A stretch of 13,105 nt of DNA from an uncultured bacterium (GTDB lineage Bacteria; CAIJMQ01), in assembly GCA_964573245.1 (NCBI GenBank), contig CAZNJA010000020.1, forward strand, positions 10,608-23,712, given 5' to 3'. Below the pieces are notes generated by a model. The model worked only from the letters and a program-made list of their open reading frames with translations, searched no databases and was not told the DNA's origin. Position 1 is the stretch's first letter. Each line of letters begins with the position of its first letter. The position numbers and the translations under genes were made by a program. Below, piece after piece: positions 3,274-13,105 of the stretch.

Positions 3274-3687
3274 ATGAGAGGAAATCCGATTATAGTATGT
3301 GTTGTAGTTGTTGCGGTTTTATTGGCCGGTTGTGCTACCACATCAACAAGAACAAGAGCCGGCGCAGGCACGGGCGCAATCCTCGGCGGTGTTGCGGGAG
3401 TTCTCATAGATAAGGACAATCCATGGCGCGGCGGAATCGTCGGAGCCGCAGCAGGCGCGCTTATAGGAGGAGCGATCGGCAATATAATGGACCGCGCGGC
3501 TGAAGAGGCTGCAGAAGAAGACAGGACCGTTCAATATACCAGAACATATGATGACGGCACACGGGAAATAGTCAGAGCAACACCTTCCGGATATAGCGAA
3601 GACGGCGATTATAGATTAGTAAGAACACAAGTAATTCGCAATGGTGTGGTGGTGGAAGAGAAAGTTAAAAGAGTTCCTATGGATTAA
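3274..3687 (+). CDS. Glycine-zipper outer-membrane lipoprotein
   Basis: GAGG upstream of ATG 3274; hydrophobic signal ending in lipobox LAG-C; glycine zipper GAGTGAILGGVAG...GGIVGAAAGALIGGAIGN; short beta-rich C-terminus with no OmpA domain visible. Confidence 0.85.
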   Translation: MRGNPIIVCVVVVAVLLAGCATTSTRTRAGAGTGAILGGVAGVLIDKDNPWRGGIVGAAAGALIGGAIGNIMDRAAEEAAEEDRTVQYTRTYDDGTREIVRATPSGYSEDGDYRLVRTQVIRNGVVVEEKVKRVPMD

Positions 3688-3768
3688 TGCATAAGTTCAA
3701 TAAAAAATTGCCAATTTGGGGTGTGTTCTTTCTTAATTCCAAAAACATATTTGCAATTTCCAGACAGA

Positions 3769-4776
3769 TTATTTCAGATACCCTTCCGTAAATTTTATTA
3801 TATTGTTCATCATGCCGACTGTCTCCACAGGATATTTTCCCACTGCCGATTCGGCGGAAAGCATAACGAAATCGGTCCCGTCTATTATGGCATTTGCCAC
3901 GTCCGTTACTTCTGCTCTGGTAGGAATGCGGTTTTCGGTCATACTTTCGAGCATCTGTGTCGCAGTAATGACGAATTTTTTGGCTTTGTTGCACTTTTTT
4001 ATTATCATTTTCTGTATGACAGGAATTTGGTAAACAGGAACTGAAACTCCCATATCTCCGCGCGCTATCATAATCCCGTCAGAGGTTTTGATTATCCCGT
4101 CTATATTTTTTATGCCTTCTCTGTCTTCTATTTTTGCGATGAGTTTGCATTTCGAATTGGGTTTAAGCAGTTTTCTCACATCCAGAATATCGCTTACCTT
4201 ACGCACAAAAGATTGTGCTATATATTCGACGCCGTGTTCTTCGCAAAAGAGAATATCTTGAGTATCTTTTTGGCTGATGCCGCCGAAATCAAGCTTTGCC
4301 TCCGGAATATTTATCCCTTTGTATTTCTTCAAAAGTCCGCCGACAAGAACTTTGACTTTTAGACTATGTTTAGTTCGCCCGATTACTTGCAAGGAGATAT
4401 TTCCGTCGTCTATGAATATATGTTGTCCGTTTTTTATCGTCCGCAGGGAACCTTTATAATCGAAAGGAATAGTTTTATAGCCGCCTTTTATTTTTTCCTG
4501 TGTGAGCCAGAAGATATTGCGTTTTTTCACTTCAAGCGGTTCGGCAAGTTCACCCACTCTTATGCGGTGTCCCTGTAAATCACCAAGAAGTTTTACCCCC
4601 CTGCGGTATTTTTTATTCAGAAGACGGACTATTTCTATTTTGTTAAGCAAAGTCTTGCCGCTTCCGTGCGAAAAATTAAGACGCGCCACGTCCATGCCTG
4701 CAAGCATCATTTTTCTGATAACGGTTTCGTTTGCGGACGCGGGCCCTAGAGTGCAGATTATTTTAGTCTTCACCAT
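3769..4776 (-). CDS. pyk: Pyruvate kinase, short form (A and B domains only, no C-terminal regulatory domain)
   Basis: [58 protein letters not shown]; 335 aa, ending just after the last barrel helix. Confidence 0.93.
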
Positions 4777-5269
4777 AAGAATTCTTAATAAGTCTGGAAC
4801 TTGACTGAACTTTTTCGCCGCCTACTTCAGTAACTATTTTTATGCCTAATTTGTCGCATATTTTCTTTTCGGGAATATTATCCAATGTTCTGTCCCCGCC
4901 TTTGGCGAATATATCGGGTTTAATCAATTTTAAAGTTTCGATTACGGTTCCGTCTTCGTCTATCGAGATAATCGCTTCGTCAACACACCCAATTGCAGAA
5001 ACTATTTCCAAACGTTCCTGCTGGTCCATGAAAGGTTTGCTTCCCTTTATTTTTACTTGTTTATCGTTATTGACGATAACTACAAGACGGTCACCGAGTT
5101 TTTTTGCTTCTTTCAAATAACGAACATGCCCTTTGTGAACAGGGTTGAAATAACCCGATACGCAAACTGTTCCGCCTATCAATCTTTGGCTGGCAGGCCC
5201 GCCTGCCAACGAACTTTTTTGGCGGGCAGGCTTTCGTAAGAAGCGGGCAGGTATTTTTTTACTACACAT
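4763..5269 (-). CDS. Cytidylyltransferase-like HxGH nucleotidyltransferase (TagD/RfaE-C-terminal/FAD synthase-like)
   Basis: [40 protein letters not shown]; overlaps the pyk start by 14 bp. Substrate cannot be assigned. Confidence 0.85.
5171..5251 (-). repeat. In-frame tandem array of three CCTGCC(C/A)GC-initiated units, two of them palindromic, inside the nucleotidyltransferase gene
   Basis: Units of 21 nt (5231-5251), 33 nt (5198-5230) and 27 nt (5171-5197), each a multiple of 3. The middle unit is the hairpin CCTGCCCGCCAA-9nt-TTGGCAGGCGGG. The array encodes [27 protein letters not shown]. Confidence 0.8.
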
Positions 5270-5285
5270 TGTCCGACATCTCCTT

Positions 5286-7718
5286 TTATTTATTTTTATT
5301 CTGCAAACCTTTTTTATCTATATACTTCTTACTTACAATTATGGCAAGCCGCGCTATAAGGTAAGAGGTTGTGGATTCCGCTCCCTGATTTAAGTTAATA
5401 TGCCCCTCTCCTACTCCGTCGTAGCATCCGCCTGTGGTTCTGTCATAGACCATCTGCTTTAGAACATTGTCACCCAAAAACCAGTTAAAAGCCACATGCA
5501 TAAGTTTTTTGTAAGAATCTTTTCCGGTTACCAAACATGCGGAGGAAAGAGCGCAAACCATTGCCGACACATCTTCGGGCTGCTGGTCGAAATAACGGCG
5601 CTGCCCCGTTCTGTGATGCCAGCCGTCCTGACCTGTGGGTATATACATTCCGTTTACAAAAGTATGACTTATCAGAAAATCCAGCGTCTTTATGCCTATA
5701 TCAAAGTAGTCGCTATTGCGGGTTTGTTCATATCCCAAAATAAGCGCCTCGGGTAAAACGGCATTGGAATAAGTAAGATAATTTTCAAACCACTGCCAAT
5801 CTGCCGAAGACACGCCGCGATAAAGCGATACCAATCTGTCGCAAAGAACAATTAATATCTTTTCCGCCTTAACTCGCCACTCGACTAACAATCTTTTTTT
5901 CGTTTCGTCTTCAGCTCGACGAAGCGGAGGCAATAAAGGAAGCGAAGCCGAAGAGCTTGGACCAGACGCATCCAAATCCCTCCTACCTTCAATTGCTTTA
6001 ATTCTTCTTAAAAGCAGACAAACCCCTTTTATATAAAAAGCGGTTGCCCTGGGAGATTCAAACATTTTATGTCTTTCTATTCTTTTATTTAACAGGGATA
6101 GAGCTTTGTTTTTTATGCCCTCAGGAAGGGAATCAACCGAGGCGACAACCGCCAATGCCCACATAGCCCGACCGTTAGCATCATCAAGGTTTTCTTTTTT
6201 GTTAAGCTCAAAATCTATCGTTCTGTCGGACTTTACATAATTATGAAAAATGCCTCCATTCCCGCTTTGCCCCTCTGAGTTGGGACCTAATAAAAACTCT
6301 ATGAAATCCAAATATATTTTTATACGATTGATCAACCCTGTTTTCTGTTTATCAAGATAGGTTATCTTAATAGATTTTCCGAGTTCGTCGTAATATAAGC
6401 ATGCAACTATCAGAGCGCGGGCATTGTCATCAAGTGTATAACCCGATGAAATATCAGGCAGGGACAGTTTTGCGAACTGTATGATACCGAAATCATCTGT
6501 AAGGCAGAACATATGACTAAGATTAATGCGGGGTATTTTTTTATATTCGCTTACTTCGGCGACATTATTTGAATATTTAGAGAACAATTTTGAATACTCA
6601 AGGGCAACATTATCCCAAGTCATATTGCGAGTTCTAAAATAGGCATTCTTCCCAAGTTGTTCCCTTAGTTGGAGCTCTTTGAGAAGTTTTATGATAGCTT
6701 CGGCATAAGAATCAGGATCTTTAAAATTTACCAATATTCCCGTTTTCTGTGTTACGAGTTCCTTAGCTTGCGCAAAAGGGGTGGAAATTACAGGTCTGCC
6801 CACACCCAGCGCATAGGAAAGCGTGCCTGAAACAGCCTGATTGGGGTCAAGAGATGTTGAAATATAAATATCCGTCGCCTTTAAAAATTGAAGCAGTTTA
6901 TCAAGGTCAGCATATTCATTATAAAAGTTCACGTTGGAGGAAAGTTTGAGAGCGAGGACTTTTTCAATCAAAAAATTACGGTAACTTTCTCCTTCTTCTT
7001 TTAGAACTCCCGGATGAGTAACACCCAAAACGATATACAAAAAATCAGGGTAAGCATTAACAACTTTAGGAAGCGCCTCTATGACATATTCAATCCCTTT
7101 GCCTCTGCTCAAGAAACCGAACGTTAAAAGAGTCGTCCTTTTAAAAAAACTTAAAACATACTTTTGTTTTATACTTGAGATGTAGGGCATAGAATGAATG
7201 CCGTGGGGAATGCACGATATTTTATCCTCGCTTATTCCGTATTCCCGAACAAGTATTTCCTTGGAACGGTTAGTCATTACAATCAAACCACTTGATTTCT
7301 CGGATATCAACTTGACCACGTCATAAAGTTTAGGATTGGGCGAAGGCAAAACACTGTGAAAAGTGATAATAGACGGTCTCTTAAGCGCATCCAAAAATGC
7401 AAGAAGGTAAAAGCCATATTCTCCTCCGAAAATGCCGAATTCATGCTGTATATTCACAAGTTTTACATCATCCATTGCGTTAATTTCTTCGGCGGTTTTA
7501 ATATATTCCTGCCGGGAATTCTGATCTATCTGGAAGATGACTTTTCTCGGGTAGTGATAACGCGATATATCATCTGGGTTGATCGCGGCTATCCTGGACT
7601 CAATAACGGGTTCAAGTAAATTATCCATCGTATCCGTAAGGTCTTGGGTAAAGGTAGCTATGCCGCATTCTCTGGGCGGGAAAGTGGACAAATAAATAAT
7701 TTTAAGTGTTTTTTTCAT
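5286..7718 (-). CDS. Family 4 (GT-B) glycosyltransferase fused to a C-terminal six-hairpin glycosidase-like helical domain
   Basis: N-terminal FPPRECGIATF, IQHEFGIFG, IPHG, TFGFLSRGKG, QAVSGTLSYA..G.P.ISTP; C-terminal DDFGIIQFA, GYTLDDNARAL, WFE..LTYSNA, FDQQP, GGCYDG, NLNQGAEST. Confidence 0.88.
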   Translation of the reverse strand: MKKTLKIIYLSTFPPRECGIATFTQDLTDTMDNLLEPVIESRIAAINPDDISRYHYPRKVIFQIDQNSRQEYIKTAEEINAMDDVKLVNIQHEFGIFGGEYGFYLLAFLDALKRPSIITFHSVLPSPNPKLYDVVKLISEKSSGLIVMTNRSKEILVREYGISEDKISCIPHGIHSMPYISSIKQKYVLSFFKRTTLLTFGFLSRGKGIEYVIEALPKVVNAYPDFLYIVLGVTHPGVLKEEGESYRNFLIEKVLALKLSSNVNFYNEYADLDKLLQFLKATDIYISTSLDPNQAVSGTLSYALGVGRPVISTPFAQAKELVTQKTGILVNFKDPDSYAEAIIKLLKELQLREQLGKNAYFRTRNMTWDNVALEYSKLFSKYSNNVAEVSEYKKIPRINLSHMFCLTDDFGIIQFAKLSLPDISSGYTLDDNARALIVACLYYDELGKSIKITYLDKQKTGLINRIKIYLDFIEFLLGPNSEGQSGNGGIFHNYVKSDRTIDFELNKKENLDDANGRAMWALAVVASVDSLPEGIKNKALSLLNKRIERHKMFESPRATAFYIKGVCLLLRRIKAIEGRRDLDASGPSSSASLPLLPPLRRAEDETKKRLLVEWRVKAEKILIVLCDRLVSLYRGVSSADWQWFENYLTYSNAVLPEALILGYEQTRNSDYFDIGIKTLDFLISHTFVNGMYIPTGQDGWHHRTGQRRYFDQQPEDVSAMVCALSSACLVTGKDSYKKLMHVAFNWFLGDNVLKQMVYDRTTGGCYDGVGEGHINLNQGAESTTSYLIARLAIIVSKKYIDKKGLQNKNK
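5865..5972 (-). repeat. Probable GC-richer in-frame insertion (about 36 aa) with an imperfect hairpin in the GT4 fusion
   Basis: Low-complexity peptide DASGPSSSASLPLLPPLRRAEDETKKRLLVEWRVKA; inner inverted repeat CGTTTCGTC (5901-5909)/GACGAAGCG (5918-5926), 8/9 paired. Boundaries are inferred. Confidence 0.55.
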
Positions 7719-7724
7719 TTTTAA

Positions 7725-8759
7725 TCAAAAATTGTCTTTGTTCTTTTTTAGTTCCGTCAAAAGTTCTTCCATATCCATAGATTTTGCCGCAATGCGCTTA
7801 TCTGCCGCGCCATAATAAATATACAACCTGCCGTCTTTTAGGATGGCCCCCGTCGGAAAAACAACATTGTTGACATCTCCCTGCTTTTCCCATTTTTGAC
7901 TCGGTGAAAATAAAGGACGTTTTAGCCGCGCGATAATTTTAGTCGGGTCATTAATATCCAATAATGCCGCGCCGGCATGATAAATTCTTCCAATGCGCGA
8001 ATCTTCTACGGCATGATATATCAAAAGCCATCCGTCTTTTGTTTCGATAGGCGGACAACCGCCCCCGATATTTCTGCTTTCAAATCTGGATACAGAATCG
8101 AGAATAACATATTTGCCCAAATTTTTAAGATAACACCTCCAATAATCATCGGTTAGCTCTTTGAAATCATCAAAATATATAACCTGAATTCCGGGAAGTA
8201 TGCGGTGAACCAACGCAAATTTGCCGTTAATTTTTTTAGGAAATATAAAAGCGTCTTTTTCCCAAAGCAGGATATCATCGCCTTGTCTGTCTTTTATATA
8301 TGATGCAAATATGGAATATTTCTCTCTAATCTTGACCTTTGAACAACAGAAGAGATTACCGGCTTCGGCATAAGTAATACGCGGAGAAATTACTCCATGC
8401 TTTGTAAAATTTACAAGGTCAGTACTTGTAGCATAAGCAATAAGCGCATTCTTCCCATCATAAACGGTATAAAAAAGATAATATACTCCGTCAAGAAAAA
8501 CAATCCTCGGGTCTTCTATGCCATTCTTTTCGTAATCGTACTCCGGGAAAATAACGGGTTTATCCAACCTTAGCACAACCTTATTGTCTACCAACTGGCA
8601 ATAACCTATTGACGAATCCATATCACCTTTCCTTACTCCTCTGTAAAACATATGAGTTATACCGTTTAGCTCAATGCAAGCGGGATTTAAGACCGCCTGA
8701 TTATCAAATCCATTCTGCGAGCTTTCAAGTATTATGCCTTCGTTTTTAATTTGAACCAT
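7725..8759 (-). CDS. GH130-like (DUF377) five-bladed beta-propeller glycoside hydrolase/phosphorylase
   Basis: VLNPA, MFYR, GIEDPR, YTVYDG, EKDAFIFP, HRI, IGGGCPPI, LLIYH, YHAGAALLD, E..GDVNNVVFPTG, YIYYGAAD. Confidence 0.9.
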   Translation of the reverse strand: MVQIKNEGIILESSQNGFDNQAVLNPACIELNGITHMFYRGVRKGDMDSSIGYCQLVDNKVVLRLDKPVIFPEYDYEKNGIEDPRIVFLDGVYYLFYTVYDGKNALIAYATSTDLVNFTKHGVISPRITYAEAGNLFCCSKVKIREKYSIFASYIKDRQGDDILLWEKDAFIFPKKINGKFALVHRILPGIQVIYFDDFKELTDDYWRCYLKNLGKYVILDSVSRFESRNIGGGCPPIETKDGWLLIYHAVEDSRIGRIYHAGAALLDINDPTKIIARLKRPLFSPSQKWEKQGDVNNVVFPTGAILKDGRLYIYYGAADKRIAAKSMDMEELLTELKKNKDNF

Positions 8760-9202: not shown

Positions 9203-9345
9203 AAATCAAAAATAAAAAATAAAATATTAAATATCCGAGTCAAAATTAAAAACTATTTATATAATAAACTTAATTCAATTTAAAATCCAATTCCACGGAG
9301 TTTTTCTTGCAAAATGGCAGGCGGTATGCTATATGTAGCGCTACT

Positions 9346-11604
9346 ATGCATATCAGATTTACCATGGTTTTTCTGTTTTTTACCCTTATTCTTTCCCCGA
9401 ATCTCAATGCCGATGAAGTTATTCAGAACGGCCTGCCGTCCCGCCTTGACTCGTCGTCTTTGGCGAGGCAGGTAAAAATAGAAGGTGAAAGGGTAGAGTA
9501 TCTCATAAAAGACGACTTTATTATTGCGATAGATAATGCATTCATCGAATATAAAAACATAAAGATTTTTGCGGACAGACTGGAAATAAACATTGATGCC
9601 GAAGAGGTCAAAGCCATCAATAATGTCTATTACGTCAAAGGACAAAATACCGTGCACGCTAATGAAATGTTTTACGATTTGAAAGAAAATAGAGGCTATT
9701 TCGCCGGCGATATAACAGGTTACTTCCCGCCCTGGCACTGGACAGGAAAAAGAATAGATGTTCTCTCGGAAAATGAATTTACTTTAAGCCGCGGCAGTTT
9801 CACCACCTGCGACCGCAAATATCCGCATTATCATTTAAGTTGTTCCAGCGCAACACTTAACCTTGAAGACAAAGCAACCGCAAAAAATATGCTTTTTTTC
9901 CTATACGGTGTCCCTATTTTTTATTTCCCTTATTATCATGTTTATATAAAAAACCCTCCTTACGGATTAGTAAATTGGGTGGGATATTCCGAAGAAAAAG
10001 GGTGGATGGATCTCGCCCATTACAACTGGTATGTGAATGATAACCTTAGAGGCAGAATATATCTGGACTATCTTGAAAATTTGGGCTGGGGACAAGGATT
10101 TGATATAGATTTGGAAAATGAAGGCGGCAAAAATTATATATATGCATATTATATGGATGAAGACGATGATTTCTACGAGCGGGACAGCATAAAAAGATAC
10201 GGCGGAACCGTCGAAGGAAACGACAAATACAAAAGATGGAAAGGCGTGTTCAAACACAGACAAGAATGGCAAAACGACTTAACGAGCATTATGAAAATAG
10301 AAAGATTTTCCGACGAGAATTTCAACAAAGACTTTTTCTTCGAGGAGATGAACAAAGGAGAGGAAAAATTTGCGTTAAGCAGAGCCCCCGAAAATTATTT
10401 CGCGCTTGAGCAAATAAAACCTGATTACAATTCCGTTTTTTATCTAAACGCCGCTTTGAACGATTTTGAGTATTTGGTCCAAAGACAACCAAGCATTTTC
10501 TTTGCCACAAGAGAACAGAGAATAGAAAATTCACCGCTTCATTATAAAATAGAAGCAGATTATTCCCACTTTAAAGAGGCATTTCCCGAAGAAGAAGATA
10601 TCGACGCAGACACGGAACTCGACCGATTTGATTTATTCGGCAAGTTATCTTCTCCTCACAGGATAAGCAACTGGCTCACAAGCGAGCCGTATCTCACCTT
10701 TAGAGGAACAGGATACAGCGAAAACGCAGAAGAAAAAGCGGTATTTAGAACAACGGAAAGTGTCGGATGGAACTTAAGGAGCAAACTCGCAAGAAAGTAC
10801 GGAGACGTTCAACATATTTTTCAGCCGCAAATAGGATATTATTACAGGCCCGACCCGAGTATTCCTAGAAACGAATTAATAAGACTTGACCCGATAGACA
10901 GGATAACTTCACAGAACGGATTTTTCGTCGAAATTATCAACCGTCTGAAAATCCCAAAATACGAACAGACAGAAGAGTATTTCCCTCCCGAAGATATGGA
11001 CGAAATCTATTTAAGAGAAGCCCAGCCCATTATATCTCCTTCAATCCGCTCGGATTCGCCTGCCGATTTAATAAAGACAGACAAAACGACATACACAGAG
11101 CCGTTTAATCTAAGGATTTTTTCAAATTATTCAATAGAGGAAGAGCAGTGGGACCACGTTTTCATAGAAAACACTCTTAATCCTATATCCGGAATATCTC
11201 TTGTTTCAGACGCCACATACACACCGCAAAAAGACCGATTCGAAATTGTAAATTCAAGTCTGGGAATAAGCAAATGGGAAAAAGCCGGCGGTTCTTTAGG
11301 ATTAAGTTATTACAGAACAGAAGATTTATACCGCGCAAACGGGACTATATGGTTCGACTTTTTGTTTAATACGCAACTGCAATTTTCAACGACATACGAT
11401 ATAGAAAATGAATTTATAAGAAGCGGCGGCGTTTATATAAAGAAACCGCTTCATTGCTGGACAGCGGAACTTCAAATGAACAATTACAAAAGAACCAAAG
11501 ACGAGGAATACACTTTCGAAATTTTTCTGACTTTGAGCATAACCGACCTTTCGGGATTTAAACTTCCGTTGTCCACAAGCATTACGCCGACAAACAAAAA
11601 ATAA
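9346..11604 (+). CDS. lptD: LPS-assembly protein LptD family outer-membrane beta-barrel
   Basis: Signal peptide MHIRFTMVFLFFTLILSPNLNA (ATG 9346 preferred over TTG 9307); jellyroll motifs IFADRLE, GSFTTCD...PHY, GVPIFYFPY; aromatic-rich barrel; C-terminal LHCW motif. Confidence 0.82.
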   Translation: MHIRFTMVFLFFTLILSPNLNADEVIQNGLPSRLDSSSLARQVKIEGERVEYLIKDDFIIAIDNAFIEYKNIKIFADRLEINIDAEEVKAINNVYYVKGQNTVHANEMFYDLKENRGYFAGDITGYFPPWHWTGKRIDVLSENEFTLSRGSFTTCDRKYPHYHLSCSSATLNLEDKATAKNMLFFLYGVPIFYFPYYHVYIKNPPYGLVNWVGYSEEKGWMDLAHYNWYVNDNLRGRIYLDYLENLGWGQGFDIDLENEGGKNYIYAYYMDEDDDFYERDSIKRYGGTVEGNDKYKRWKGVFKHRQEWQNDLTSIMKIERFSDENFNKDFFFEEMNKGEEKFALSRAPENYFALEQIKPDYNSVFYLNAALNDFEYLVQRQPSIFFATREQRIENSPLHYKIEADYSHFKEAFPEEEDIDADTELDRFDLFGKLSSPHRISNWLTSEPYLTFRGTGYSENAEEKAVFRTTESVGWNLRSKLARKYGDVQHIFQPQIGYYYRPDPSIPRNELIRLDPIDRITSQNGFFVEIINRLKIPKYEQTEEYFPPEDMDEIYLREAQPIISPSIRSDSPADLIKTDKTTYTEPFNLRIFSNYSIEEEQWDHVFIENTLNPISGISLVSDATYTPQKDRFEIVNSSLGISKWEKAGGSLGLSYYRTEDLYRANGTIWFDFLFNTQLQFSTTYDIENEFIRSGGVYIKKPLHCWTAELQMNNYKRTKDEEYTFEIFLTLSITDLSGFKLPLSTSITPTNKK

Positions 11605-11664: not shown

Positions 11665-13105
11665 ATGCCTGAATCCATACGGAAAAAATCACCGCAAAAT
11701 AGATTCCTGCTCATTCACGGAAATTCATTGGCGTACAAGAGTTACTATTCCCTTGCCTCCCTCCCGTTCGAATTGGGACAAAGGGAAAGCACAATTTCCC
11801 TTTTTGCAAAAATAATCTTAAAACTCTTAAAAGATTACGAGCCGATGTATTGCGCTGTCGTATTCGATAAGCCATCGCCTGCAAAAATAAAAAAATCAAC
11901 GTTCACATTAAAAACATTTCATCCCGCAATGCCAAATTCTTTACTGAAAGAAACCGCTTCTTTTAAGAAAATCCTGAAATCACTCAATATCCCAATCATC
12001 CAGGAAAAAGGATACAAAGCATCAGATATAATAGGGAAATTGGCTAATTCTTCCGCAAAAGAAAAGATAGAAACGATAATTATTTCCAGCAACAAAGATG
12101 TCCTTCAATTAATATCGGAAAACCCCGAAAGAAATGGTATTTCTAACGGGGTAAACATAAAGGTAATAAACCCTTTCCAGAATTATAAAGTTTACGATAA
12201 CAATAATATCAGACGGGAAATCGGAGTAAATCCCGGGCATATTCCGGATTTTTTGGCTCTTACGGGAGAGAAGGAAGCAAATATCCCGGGCATAGAAGGG
12301 ATAGGCGAAAAGAAAGCAATCAAACTTCTAAAAGAATATTCAAATATAGAAAATATTACTGAAAAGGCGCCGGATATGAAAGAACACAGAACTACTCTGC
12401 AACTATATAAAAAAATAGCGCTGATAAACAAAGAAGTTCCGATTGGTTTCGATTTGGAAAAATATTTACTTAAACCTTATAACATCGAAAAAATAACAAA
12501 GGTCTTCCGGAGTTTGGGGCTCGTGCGTTTACTGCTGGATTTTTCAGGCTATAAAAAGTCGGAAAACGCAAATTACAAAATTATTCTTACAGAAAATGAA
12601 CTTGATAATTTGGCAAAGCAAATGGCAGAACAAAAAGAAATAGCACTCGATACCGAAACGACTTCCGTATCCCCTACCCGCGCAAATTTAGTCGGAATTT
12701 CGCTGTCTTTCAAAGAAGGCGAGGCGTATTACATCCCTATCGCGCACAAATATTTGGGCGCGCCCAAACAACTGGATTTAAAATTGGTTCTGGAACGATT
12801 AAGACCTGTTTTGCAAAACCCGAAAATCAAAAAAGTCGGGCAAAATATAAAATATGATTACACTGTCTTGAAAAGGGCAGGACTTGAGATTAAAGACATA
12901 AATTTCGACACGATGATAGCATCTTATCTTATAAATCCGGTAAGAGGAGAGCACAACCTTTCGCATCTTGCCCTAAAATATTTGGGTTTTAAAATGCTCT
13001 CTTTTACAGAGCTTGTAGGGGATAAAAAAACAATAGCTGAAATAGAAATTGACAGAGTGGCGAATTATGCTTGTGAAGATGCCGATTTTACTTTTAGGAT
13101 AAAAA
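11665..13105 (+). CDS. polA: DNA polymerase I, N-terminal 480 aa (degenerate 5'-3' nuclease domain plus 3'-5' exonuclease domain); continues beyond the window
   Basis: Open frame from ATG 11665 to the edge: FLLIHGNSLAY, AVVFD, NIPGIEGIGEKKA (helix-hairpin-helix), ALDTETT (Exo I), GQNIKYD (Exo II), FDTMIASYL, YACEDAD (Exo III). Confidence 0.93.
   Translation, partial: MPESIRKKSPQNRFLLIHGNSLAYKSYYSLASLPFELGQRESTISLFAKIILKLLKDYEPMYCAVVFDKPSPAKIKKSTFTLKTFHPAMPNSLLKETASFKKILKSLNIPIIQEKGYKASDIIGKLANSSAKEKIETIIISSNKDVLQLISENPERNGISNGVNIKVINPFQNYKVYDNNNIRREIGVNPGHIPDFLALTGEKEANIPGIEGIGEKKAIKLLKEYSNIENITEKAPDMKEHRTTLQLYKKIALINKEVPIGFDLEKYLLKPYNIEKITKVFRSLGLVRLLLDFSGYKKSENANYKIILTENELDNLAKQMAEQKEIALDTETTSVSPTRANLVGISLSFKEGEAYYIPIAHKYLGAPKQLDLKLVLERLRPVLQNPKIKKVGQNIKYDYTVLKRAGLEIKDINFDTMIASYLINPVRGEHNLSHLALKYLGFKMLSFTELVGDKKTIAEIEIDRVANYACEDADFTFRIK
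12120..12156 (+). repeat. 33-bp palindromic in-frame insertion in polA with an AAAC direct repeat
   Basis: ACCCCG-aa-AGAAAT-ggt-ATTTCT-aa-CGGGGT (12122-12152); AAAC at 12120-12123 and 12153-12156; adds PERNGISNGVN. Confidence 0.85.

Follow-up and report, generated by a model that had tools for sequence, protein, structure and literature searches.

In the textbook model of bacterial replication the 5' nuclease of DNA polymerase I (Pol I) itself removes the Okazaki primers. Here we describe a polA gene, encoding Pol I, whose flap endonuclease (FEN)-like N-terminal domain has kept its fold and DNA-binding motif but has had six of its nine metal-site carboxylates replaced, in a genome that also encodes a canonical stand-alone FEN. 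The gene lies at the end of a 13,105-nucleotide stretch of DNA from an uncultured bacterium (GenBank assembly GCA_964573245.1, contig CAZNJA010000020.1), which is referred to below as the window and corresponds to positions 10608-23712 of contig C20 of the genome G000. The G000 assembly comprises 1.46 Mb in 110 contigs, with an estimated completeness of 93% and a contamination estimate of 0.01. The phylum name used here, Candidatus Ratteibacteria, was taken from the database name of a protein of the congener G003. Our sample of the phylum consisted of nine species genomes from three families (f1, f2 and f3), with G001, G002 and G003 being congeners of G000.

The polA gene and its integrity

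The last open reading frame (ORF) of the window (11665-13104, plus strand) stays open up to the end of the contig and comprises the N-terminal 480 codons of polA, covering the FEN-like and 3'-5' exonuclease domains. Pfam matches divide it, all on the plus strand, into a FEN-like N-terminal (PIN/resolvase-like) subdomain at residues 14-186, which carries the degenerate metal site (11704-12222; PF02739, 5_3_exonuc_N, 100.7-103.5 bits), a helix-three-turn-helix (H3TH)/SAM-fold subdomain at residues 188-273 (12226-12483; PF01367, 5_3_exonuc, 69.9 bits) and a 3'-5' proofreading exonuclease domain at residues 304-479 (12574-13101; PF01612, DNA_pol_A_exo1, 121.7 bits). Neither a stop codon nor a frameshift occurs across the 480 codons, and the proofreading motifs DTETT (12649-12663), QNIKYD (12841-12858) and YACED (13066-13080), again on the plus strand, are intact; an earlier prediction made from the letters of the window alone (the original prediction) was right on both counts. 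The remainder of the gene, on the minus strand of contig C91 (2578-3804), forms a 408-codon open frame at the contig end that starts EFDKVFYELEMPLV, matches the polymerase family PF00476 with 531 bits and contains DYSQIELR, RRKAKAVNFGIIYG and QIHDELLFE. These three are polymerase motifs, and DTETT, QNIKYD and YACED are those of a DEDDy proofreading exonuclease. Together, the three families matched by the window ORF (PF02739, PF01367 and PF01612) and PF00476 on C91 make up the three-domain layout of Pol I.

When the two parts are set against the intact, 888-amino-acid single ORF of G003, about 10 residues between the contig ends are unassembled. Since the polymerase half on C91 is open, the gap relative to G003 is this small and the gene order is as in the congeners, the window gene is a single polA of normal length, interrupted by the assembly alone. 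A pseudogene or otherwise broken gene, which a damaged polymerase domain downstream would have indicated, was therefore ruled out, the polymerase domain being intact on C91 and the ORF uninterrupted in the congener. A TAG flagged near the G003 polA sits upstream of the start codon of that ORF.

The original prediction had also allowed for a specialised PolA paralogue. That the gene is a second PolA of this kind, or an artefact of assembly or contamination, rather than the housekeeping Pol I, is highly improbable. Its division over two contigs of a 110-contig metagenome-assembled genome is what an artefact might look like, but PF00476 matches the G000 contigs once only in the genome profile search, leaving no second polA, and the full-length congener orthologue P0002 scores 959.1 bits against the NCBIfam Pol I equivalog NF004397, for which the cut-off is 720 (the 480-residue window fragment scores 327.8 bits, under the cut-off because it is partial). 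The same protein is furthermore present in five genomes of three families, the tree resolves the family groups, the contamination estimate is low, and the gene order is conserved on both sides of polA. Upstream lies a 765-amino-acid ORF without a Pfam family (9307-11604, plus strand), used here as a synteny marker, the C-terminal 254 residues of which share 74% identity with the gene upstream of polA in G001; on the downstream side a LigD phosphoesterase gene is present in both G000 and G001.

With regard to these flanking genes, the 765-amino-acid ORF has only a faint LptD-like NCBIfam match (19.9 bits); in G003, too, polA is preceded by a similar C-terminus. The downstream gene of G000 (C91:2008-2388, minus strand; L003:922-1302) encodes a 126-amino-acid stand-alone LigD 3'-phosphoesterase domain (PF13298, 137 bits), with the LigD 3'-phosphoesterase gene of G001 likewise located downstream of polA (L035:2680-3102).

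The FEN-like domain: metal site, arch and fold

Motifs and metal-site residues were mapped by HMMER alignment to Taq Pol I (1TAQ/1BGX) and Mycobacterium smegmatis Pol1 (6VDE). The motifs quoted in the original prediction were all recovered in the translation of 11665-13104 at the positions it gave, and the alignment to Taq Pol I places the changes on catalytic positions. All of the following coordinates are on the plus strand. In LLIHG (11707-11721) the codon at 11716-11718 encodes H18, replacing Taq D18 and FenA D9, a ligand of site I (M1). GYKASD (12010-12027) contains K118-A-S120-D121 (12016-12027) for E-A-D-D (Taq E117, D119 and D120), with D121 alone kept, whilst SSNKD (12085-12099) contains N143-K-D145 (12091-12099, N143 being 12091-12093) for D-K-D (Taq D142 and D144), with D145 kept. 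In TGEKEAN (12262-12282) the residues E202-K-E-A205 (12268-12279) stand for D-x-S-D (Taq D188 and D191). Between LLIHG and GYKASD, D68, the equivalent of Taq D67, is a kept carboxylate (11866-11868). Expressed as Taq Pol I positions, D18 has become His, E117 Lys, D119 Ser, D142 Asn, D188 Glu and D191 Ala, and D67, D120 and D144 are still Asp. Six of the nine metal-site carboxylates are replaced, five of them non-conservatively and one by a change from Asp to Glu; the original prediction had counted five, although its own list of motifs implies six. What is left of the cluster of eight or nine metal-binding carboxylates is therefore D68, D121 and D145, together with E202 in place of an Asp.

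The former helical arch has been rewritten as well, as had been proposed. In the segment KIKKSTFTLKTFHP (11884-11925, plus strand) the Tyr and Arg of the Tyr-Lys...Arg motif are lost, and in the alignment FRHEAYGGYKAGR stands opposite KIKKSTFTLKTFH. The Tyr is replaced by Leu and the Arg by His; the Lys is kept in G000, and in relatives the position is occupied by Ser, Ile, Arg or Asp. The degeneracy of the metal site in the G000 Pol I is thus confirmed as an observation.

The consequences of such changes can be gauged from M. smegmatis FenA, for which the reported metal ligands are D9, D60, E123 and D125 (M1), D125, D146, D148 and D208 (M2) and D148, D205 and D208 (M3) (PMC5934675). FenA D9A is reported to have 0.2% of flap activity remaining, and D146A, D148A, D205A and D208A have at most 0.1%; according to the same study the D125A change eliminates activity, and the D125N and D208N proteins are described as nuclease-dead (PMC5934675). 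At the eight metal-ligand positions of FenA, located through the conserved motifs and the offset of the Taq alignment rather than by direct alignment to FenA, the G000 protein reads H, D, K, S, N, D, E and A. The residues corresponding to the site-I set of E. coli ExoIX (Asp10, Asp51, Glu103, Asp105 and Asp128) are H, D, K, S and N, so that the site which even the reduced ExoIX class keeps is destroyed here. Because the replacements take in four of the five site-I ligands, additional site-II ligands and both the Tyr and the Arg of the arch, metal-dependent flap cleavage by the Pol I N-domain has very probably been abolished, judging by these homologues.

An alternative would be that the N-domain continues to act as a nuclease through a remodelled active site, in which His18, D68/D121/D145/E202 and the Glu or Asp at 204 of family f1 support one-metal or His-based chemistry with altered activity or specificity, for example that of a weak ExoIX-like FEN. 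The replacements are indeed conserved (H18 in three families; K118, S120, N143 and E202 in f1) and selection on the domain is strong, and both ExoIX-class FENs and the T5 FEN variant D201I/D204S are reported to cut flaps with a reduced number of carboxylates (PMC2650880). We nevertheless consider this unlikely. Site I, kept in ExoIX, is the one whose ligands have been lost here, with only one of the five site-I positions retained, and single changes of FenA at three of these positions each leave 0.2% of activity or less (PMC5934675). A Lys at the position of the Glu would, in addition, fill or repel the metal site, and the families differ from one another (K, S or G at 117, S, E or D at 119, D or S at 144), which fits decay better than remodelling.

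The fold of the domain and its DNA-binding motif have been kept, as the original prediction stated, with Pfam, AlphaFold2 and Foldseek in agreement. The H3TH subdomain is conserved (NIPGIEGIGEKKA), and the residues G201, N206, P208, G209, G214 and A218 of this region are invariant. An AlphaFold2 model of residues 1-300, built from a 32-sequence alignment, had a mean predicted local distance difference test score (pLDDT) of 84.9 and a predicted template modelling score (pTM) of 0.85; in it the former arch region (residues 70-90) forms two short beta strands, modelled with moderate confidence (pLDDT 72-75). When this model was compared with the Protein Data Bank using Foldseek, the top matches were all members of the FEN family, with query-normalised template modelling (TM) scores of 0.64-0.73, and included the plastid exonuclease (9L55/9L56), E. 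coli ExoIX, Taq, FenA and M. smegmatis Pol1. By Pfam matches above the cut-off, by the model and by structural similarity, the domain accordingly has the PIN-like fold and the H3TH of the FEN family.

Conservation and loss of the domain across Ratteibacteria

A PolA N-domain is present in five of the nine genomes (G000, G003, G005, G006 and G007, which represent three families) and is degenerate in all five; a search of G004 (84% complete) and G008 (64% complete) with PF00476 gave no match. The nine metal-site positions read H-D-K-S-D-N-D-E-x in f1, H-D-S-E-D-E-D-D-L in f2 and H-D-G-D-D-E-S-D-L in f3. Common to the three families are the replacement of D18 by His, the loss of the Glu, a changed D142, the loss of D191 and the rewritten arch, and since these changes are shared the inactivation appears to predate the split of the families. 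His18 is invariant in 12 of the 12 Ratteibacteria PolA N-domains compared, and within f1 the replacement residues (H-D-K-S-D-N-D-E) are invariant save for the ninth position, even at 53-57% identity.

Proteins were surveyed in a database of 5.8 billion sequences, with counts referring to the matches listed. The 11 closest proteins, at 45-100% identity, are the Ratteibacteria Pol I proteins among these matches, and all are degenerate. Other Pol I proteins, at 36% identity or less, read D-D-E-D-D-D-D-D-D in 110 of 110 cases, the first position being an alignment gap in five, and all nine carboxylates are present in 22 of 22 homologues from other phyla. As these 22 homologues and the 110 Pol I proteins from outside the Ratteibacteria keep the set, the pattern is not due to chance, and the degenerate Pol I FEN site characterises the phylum as a whole.

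A wider screen covered 301 genomes of at least 90% completeness, 300 of which have a PF02739 match. The same state was not found elsewhere among them, the five weakest best matches being contig-end fragments or split matches; in this screen 176 matches fell outside those listed, and genomes with a single FEN were judged by the best E-value alone. In genomes from outside the Ratteibacteria with two full FEN homologues (15 of 15), the copy in the longest frame scores 168.6-211 bits against PF02739 and the other copy 86-180 bits, with a short stand-alone copy being marginally higher in G043 alone (178.3 versus 177.1 bits). In G000 this polarity is reversed, at 103.5 bits for the PolA domain versus 190.4 bits for the stand-alone FEN. 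Full-text literature searches returned neither an account of a Pol I whose FEN domain is degenerate nor anything on replication in Ratteibacteria. The Pol I of Rhodothermus marinus is reported to be without 5'-3' exonuclease activity. As a separate observation from the same screen, the unrelated genome G116 contains 902- and 906-amino-acid frames with FEN domains of 186.9 and 164.8 bits (G116:C2:82549-83040 and G116:C17:36076-36567; L062 and L075), which suggests two full-length Pol I-like genes.

The ratio of non-synonymous to synonymous substitution rates (dN/dS) was computed for the two close pairs with DNA, G000/G003 and G006/G007. Between G000 and G003 it was 0.083 for the FEN-like domain (dN 0.12, dS 1.45), 0.077 for the 3'-5' exonuclease and 0.097 for the polymerase, ratios that are rough because dS is near saturation. 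The pair G006/G007 (dS 0.58-0.70) provides the better estimate, at 0.113, 0.055 and 0.068 respectively. Amino-acid identity to G003 falls in parallel across the FEN-like, exonuclease and polymerase domains, being 80, 81 and 83% for G000, 58, 64 and 73% for P0009 and 42, 47 and 54% for G006. Fifty-three of 300 positions are invariant in the 12 PolA N-domains spanning the three families, and these concentrate in helix alpha-1 (H18, N20, AYK and Y27) and in the H3TH region. As the values of 0.08-0.11 show, purifying selection, somewhat weaker than that on the catalytic domains, has conserved the degenerate domain throughout the history of the phylum.

Two congeners have nonetheless lost the domain. 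G001 and G002 encode a 612-amino-acid PolA without the FEN-like domain, the N-termini of which (MNNK and MTNKF) match the starts of the full-length proteins and then pass directly into the linker (...YKKPDHVDYKTIL); this is a clean in-frame loss of about 280 codons that left the gene upstream of polA unaltered. A maximum-likelihood tree built on the Klenow region nests the two proteins in f1, where their sister group, P0008/P0009 (support 78), retains the degenerate domain; because of this placement the deletion is derived. The domain is dispensable, then, in at least one lineage.

The deletion raises the question of whether the domain is a functionless relic that decays neutrally toward deletion and persists only owing to the rarity of in-frame deletions or to a destabilising effect of its removal on Pol I. 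G001 and G002 removed it cleanly with the rest of Pol I conserved, the catalytic positions vary between families, the dN/dS of one pair is about two-fold above that of the catalytic domains, and the annotation of P0011, the protein nearest to G000 in the tree, shows a shortened N-terminus without PF02739, all of which would be expected of a relic. A dN/dS of 0.08-0.11 is, however, far below 1, and the frame is open in every full-length member, when a neutral stretch of 290 codons would have gained stops and indels. The domain has moreover outlived the diversification of the phylum, with 41-46% identity and a confidently predicted fold alongside a polymerase domain at 54-59%. Neutral persistence therefore has a low probability in our assessment.

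P0011 itself is a database protein of 799 amino acids, the nearest relative of the G000 PolA in the Klenow-region tree, and its called N-terminus lacks the first ~125 FEN-like residues. It has no PF02739 match and keeps SSNKD, GEKESN and the H3TH motif. A second deletion, in this case partial, might account for the truncation, as might a frameshift or an artefact of gene calling.

Further from polA, the minus strand of the window carries a 335-amino-acid pyruvate kinase ORF (3769-4776) consisting of the barrel domain alone (PF00224, 370 bits); the C-terminal domain of pyruvate kinase was not found in this ORF or in the overlapping ORFs of 105 and 107 amino acids (3677-4044). Also on the minus strand is a gene for an 810-amino-acid protein (5286-7718) with GT4 glycosyltransferase domains at residues ~100-370 and a C-terminal region of ~440 residues without a Pfam match, which adjoins genes resembling those for a GH130 mannoside phosphorylase (7725-8759) and a cytidylyltransferase (4763-5269).

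A stand-alone FEN and comparison with known systems

If the Pol I domain no longer cuts, another enzyme would be expected to do so, and the original prediction named a stand-alone FEN or RNase H. Contig C53 of G000 encodes a canonical stand-alone FEN of 296 amino acids with all the motifs (LLDAS, FRH..YKKNRPPMP, GYEADD, SDKD and GDSVDNIPG), which scores 188.8-190.4 bits against PF02739. Against positions 1-282 of the NCBIfam Pol I model it reaches 322 bits, about as much as the whole PolA fragment (327.8 bits). RNase HII (131.9 bits) and RNase HI (56.5 bits) are both encoded in G000. A canonical stand-alone FEN is present in eight of the nine phylum genomes, the exception being G008, which is only 64% complete. 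In a tree of FEN domains the stand-alone FENs and the PolA N-domains of Ratteibacteria form two separate clades, that of PolA being long-stemmed. On C53 (L002:283-3840) a secretin gene lies upstream of the stand-alone FEN, with coaE and rho downstream.

It was also considered whether the stand-alone FEN arose by a recent duplication of the PolA domain; the separate clades, in a tree printed without support values, leave this origin unsupported.

All the computable evidence fits the main idea of the original prediction. The N-domain is, with a probability that we put at roughly 0.78, a conserved pseudo-nuclease that probably keeps structure-specific DNA binding or an intramolecular structural role, with primers and flaps being removed by the stand-alone FEN and RNase H. 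Pol I's FEN domain would have become a pseudo-nuclease before the three families diverged, with its fold and H3TH kept. Removal of 5' flaps and primers would then take place in trans, through the stand-alone FEN aided by RNases HI and HII, leaving gap filling with proofreading as the role of Pol I. The inactive domain is most probably maintained for structure-specific binding or positioning at nicks and flaps, or for a structural role in Pol I, and one lineage of the same genus has deleted it in frame, yielding a Klenow-like Pol I.

Several points weigh against this interpretation. Four acidic residues (D68, D121, D145 and E202) remain in the N-domain and family f1 has a conserved Glu or Asp at 204 beside the invariant His18, so that a single remodelled metal site is thinkable; the T5 FEN D201I/D204S is reported to retain endonuclease activity despite the absence of site-II ligands (PMC2650880) and ExoIX is described as a one-metal-site FEN (PMC3783174). 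In the pair G006/G007, which has to be given more weight given the near-saturated dS of G000/G003, the FEN-like domain is roughly two-fold relaxed relative to the other Pol I domains, and the clean deletion in G001 and G002 makes whatever role it has non-essential. The G000 polA, finally, is broken over two contig ends with those ~10 residues missing from the assembly, and every genome compared is metagenome-assembled.

A more specific version of the pseudo-nuclease is conceivable, though we regard it as doubtful, in which the inactive FEN domain is a dedicated, selected device that senses, but does not cut, the 5' flap or nick lying ahead of Pol I, controls strand displacement and passes the flap to the stand-alone FEN. 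In a bolder variant, the invariant His18 and the remaining acids may constitute a new catalytic or ligand-binding centre. Were the flap-reading role real, it would amount to a bacterial division of labour like that of polymerase delta and FEN1, fixed across a phylum, and the living lineages would display the path from an active fused FEN through a fused pseudo-FEN to loss of the domain.

For the conserved pseudo-nuclease as such, the nearest functional parallel is Bacillus subtilis, which likewise has two FEN homologues, Pol I and the discrete FenA, the latter being reported as the major flap and primer nuclease (PMC10191290). In that organism the Pol I nuclease is reported to be weakly active and its 3'-5' exonuclease inactive (PMC10191290), whereas in Ratteibacteria the situation is reversed, the proofreading motifs being intact and six of nine FEN-site positions dismantled. 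The B. subtilis study proposed that, given an active discrete FEN, Pol I may come to do without its own nuclease, which could then diverge (PMC10191290); Ratteibacteria would be a natural case of this divergence run to completion, with the fused nuclease dismantled yet conserved.

E. coli ExoIX/Xni, structures of which are among the top Foldseek matches to the N-domain model, also combines a FEN fold with partial replacement of the carboxylates, and does so beside a complete FEN (PMC2650880). In Xni, however, the degenerate copy is stand-alone, keeps site I and has lost site II alone (PMC2650880), whereas in Ratteibacteria it is the Pol I domain that is degenerate, with four of five site-I ligands lost together with site-II ligands. 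The Ratteibacteria domain does not belong to the Xni/ExoIX subclass, given the site-I residues H, D, K, S and N and a score of 103.3 bits against the NCBIfam Xni model, for which the cut-off is 261.

Retention of a vestigial nuclease in an A-family polymerase is likewise seen in actinobacterial PolA2/APEX and in Pol I proteins with an inactive 3'-5' exonuclease (PMC12926913). The vestigial domain of PolA2/APEX is DnaQ-like, that of Ratteibacteria FEN-like, and in PolA2 it is reported to have been re-used as a scaffold bearing a beta-clamp motif (PMC12926913). The same 2026 survey of more than 3000 complete genomes describes 5'-3' exonuclease function as nearly universally conserved, and its available text makes no mention of an inactive FEN domain in Pol I orthologues (PMC12926913). 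Tallies of the 5'-3' exonuclease by domain presence would score the Ratteibacteria Pol I as nuclease-proficient.

Allen et al. sorted bacteria into four groups by their FEN content (PMC2650880). In group (iv), exemplified by Mycoplasma genitalium, a Klenow-like Pol I is accompanied by a separate two-metal FEN, with flap cleavage occurring in trans (PMC2650880), and G001 and G002, with a 612-amino-acid PolA and a canonical FEN, fit this group exactly. G000 does not, since the full domain is retained in its Pol I. With a fused, apparently inactive FEN and a separate two-metal FEN, G000 and most of the phylum fall between groups (iii) and (iv) and, as these are described, into none of the four. 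The Ratteibacteria Pol I may thus represent a natural, phylum-wide intermediate between the fused and the split arrangements of Pol I and FEN, and offers a non-model test bed both for the non-catalytic contribution of the FEN domain to Pol I and for the way in which fused enzyme domains are lost.

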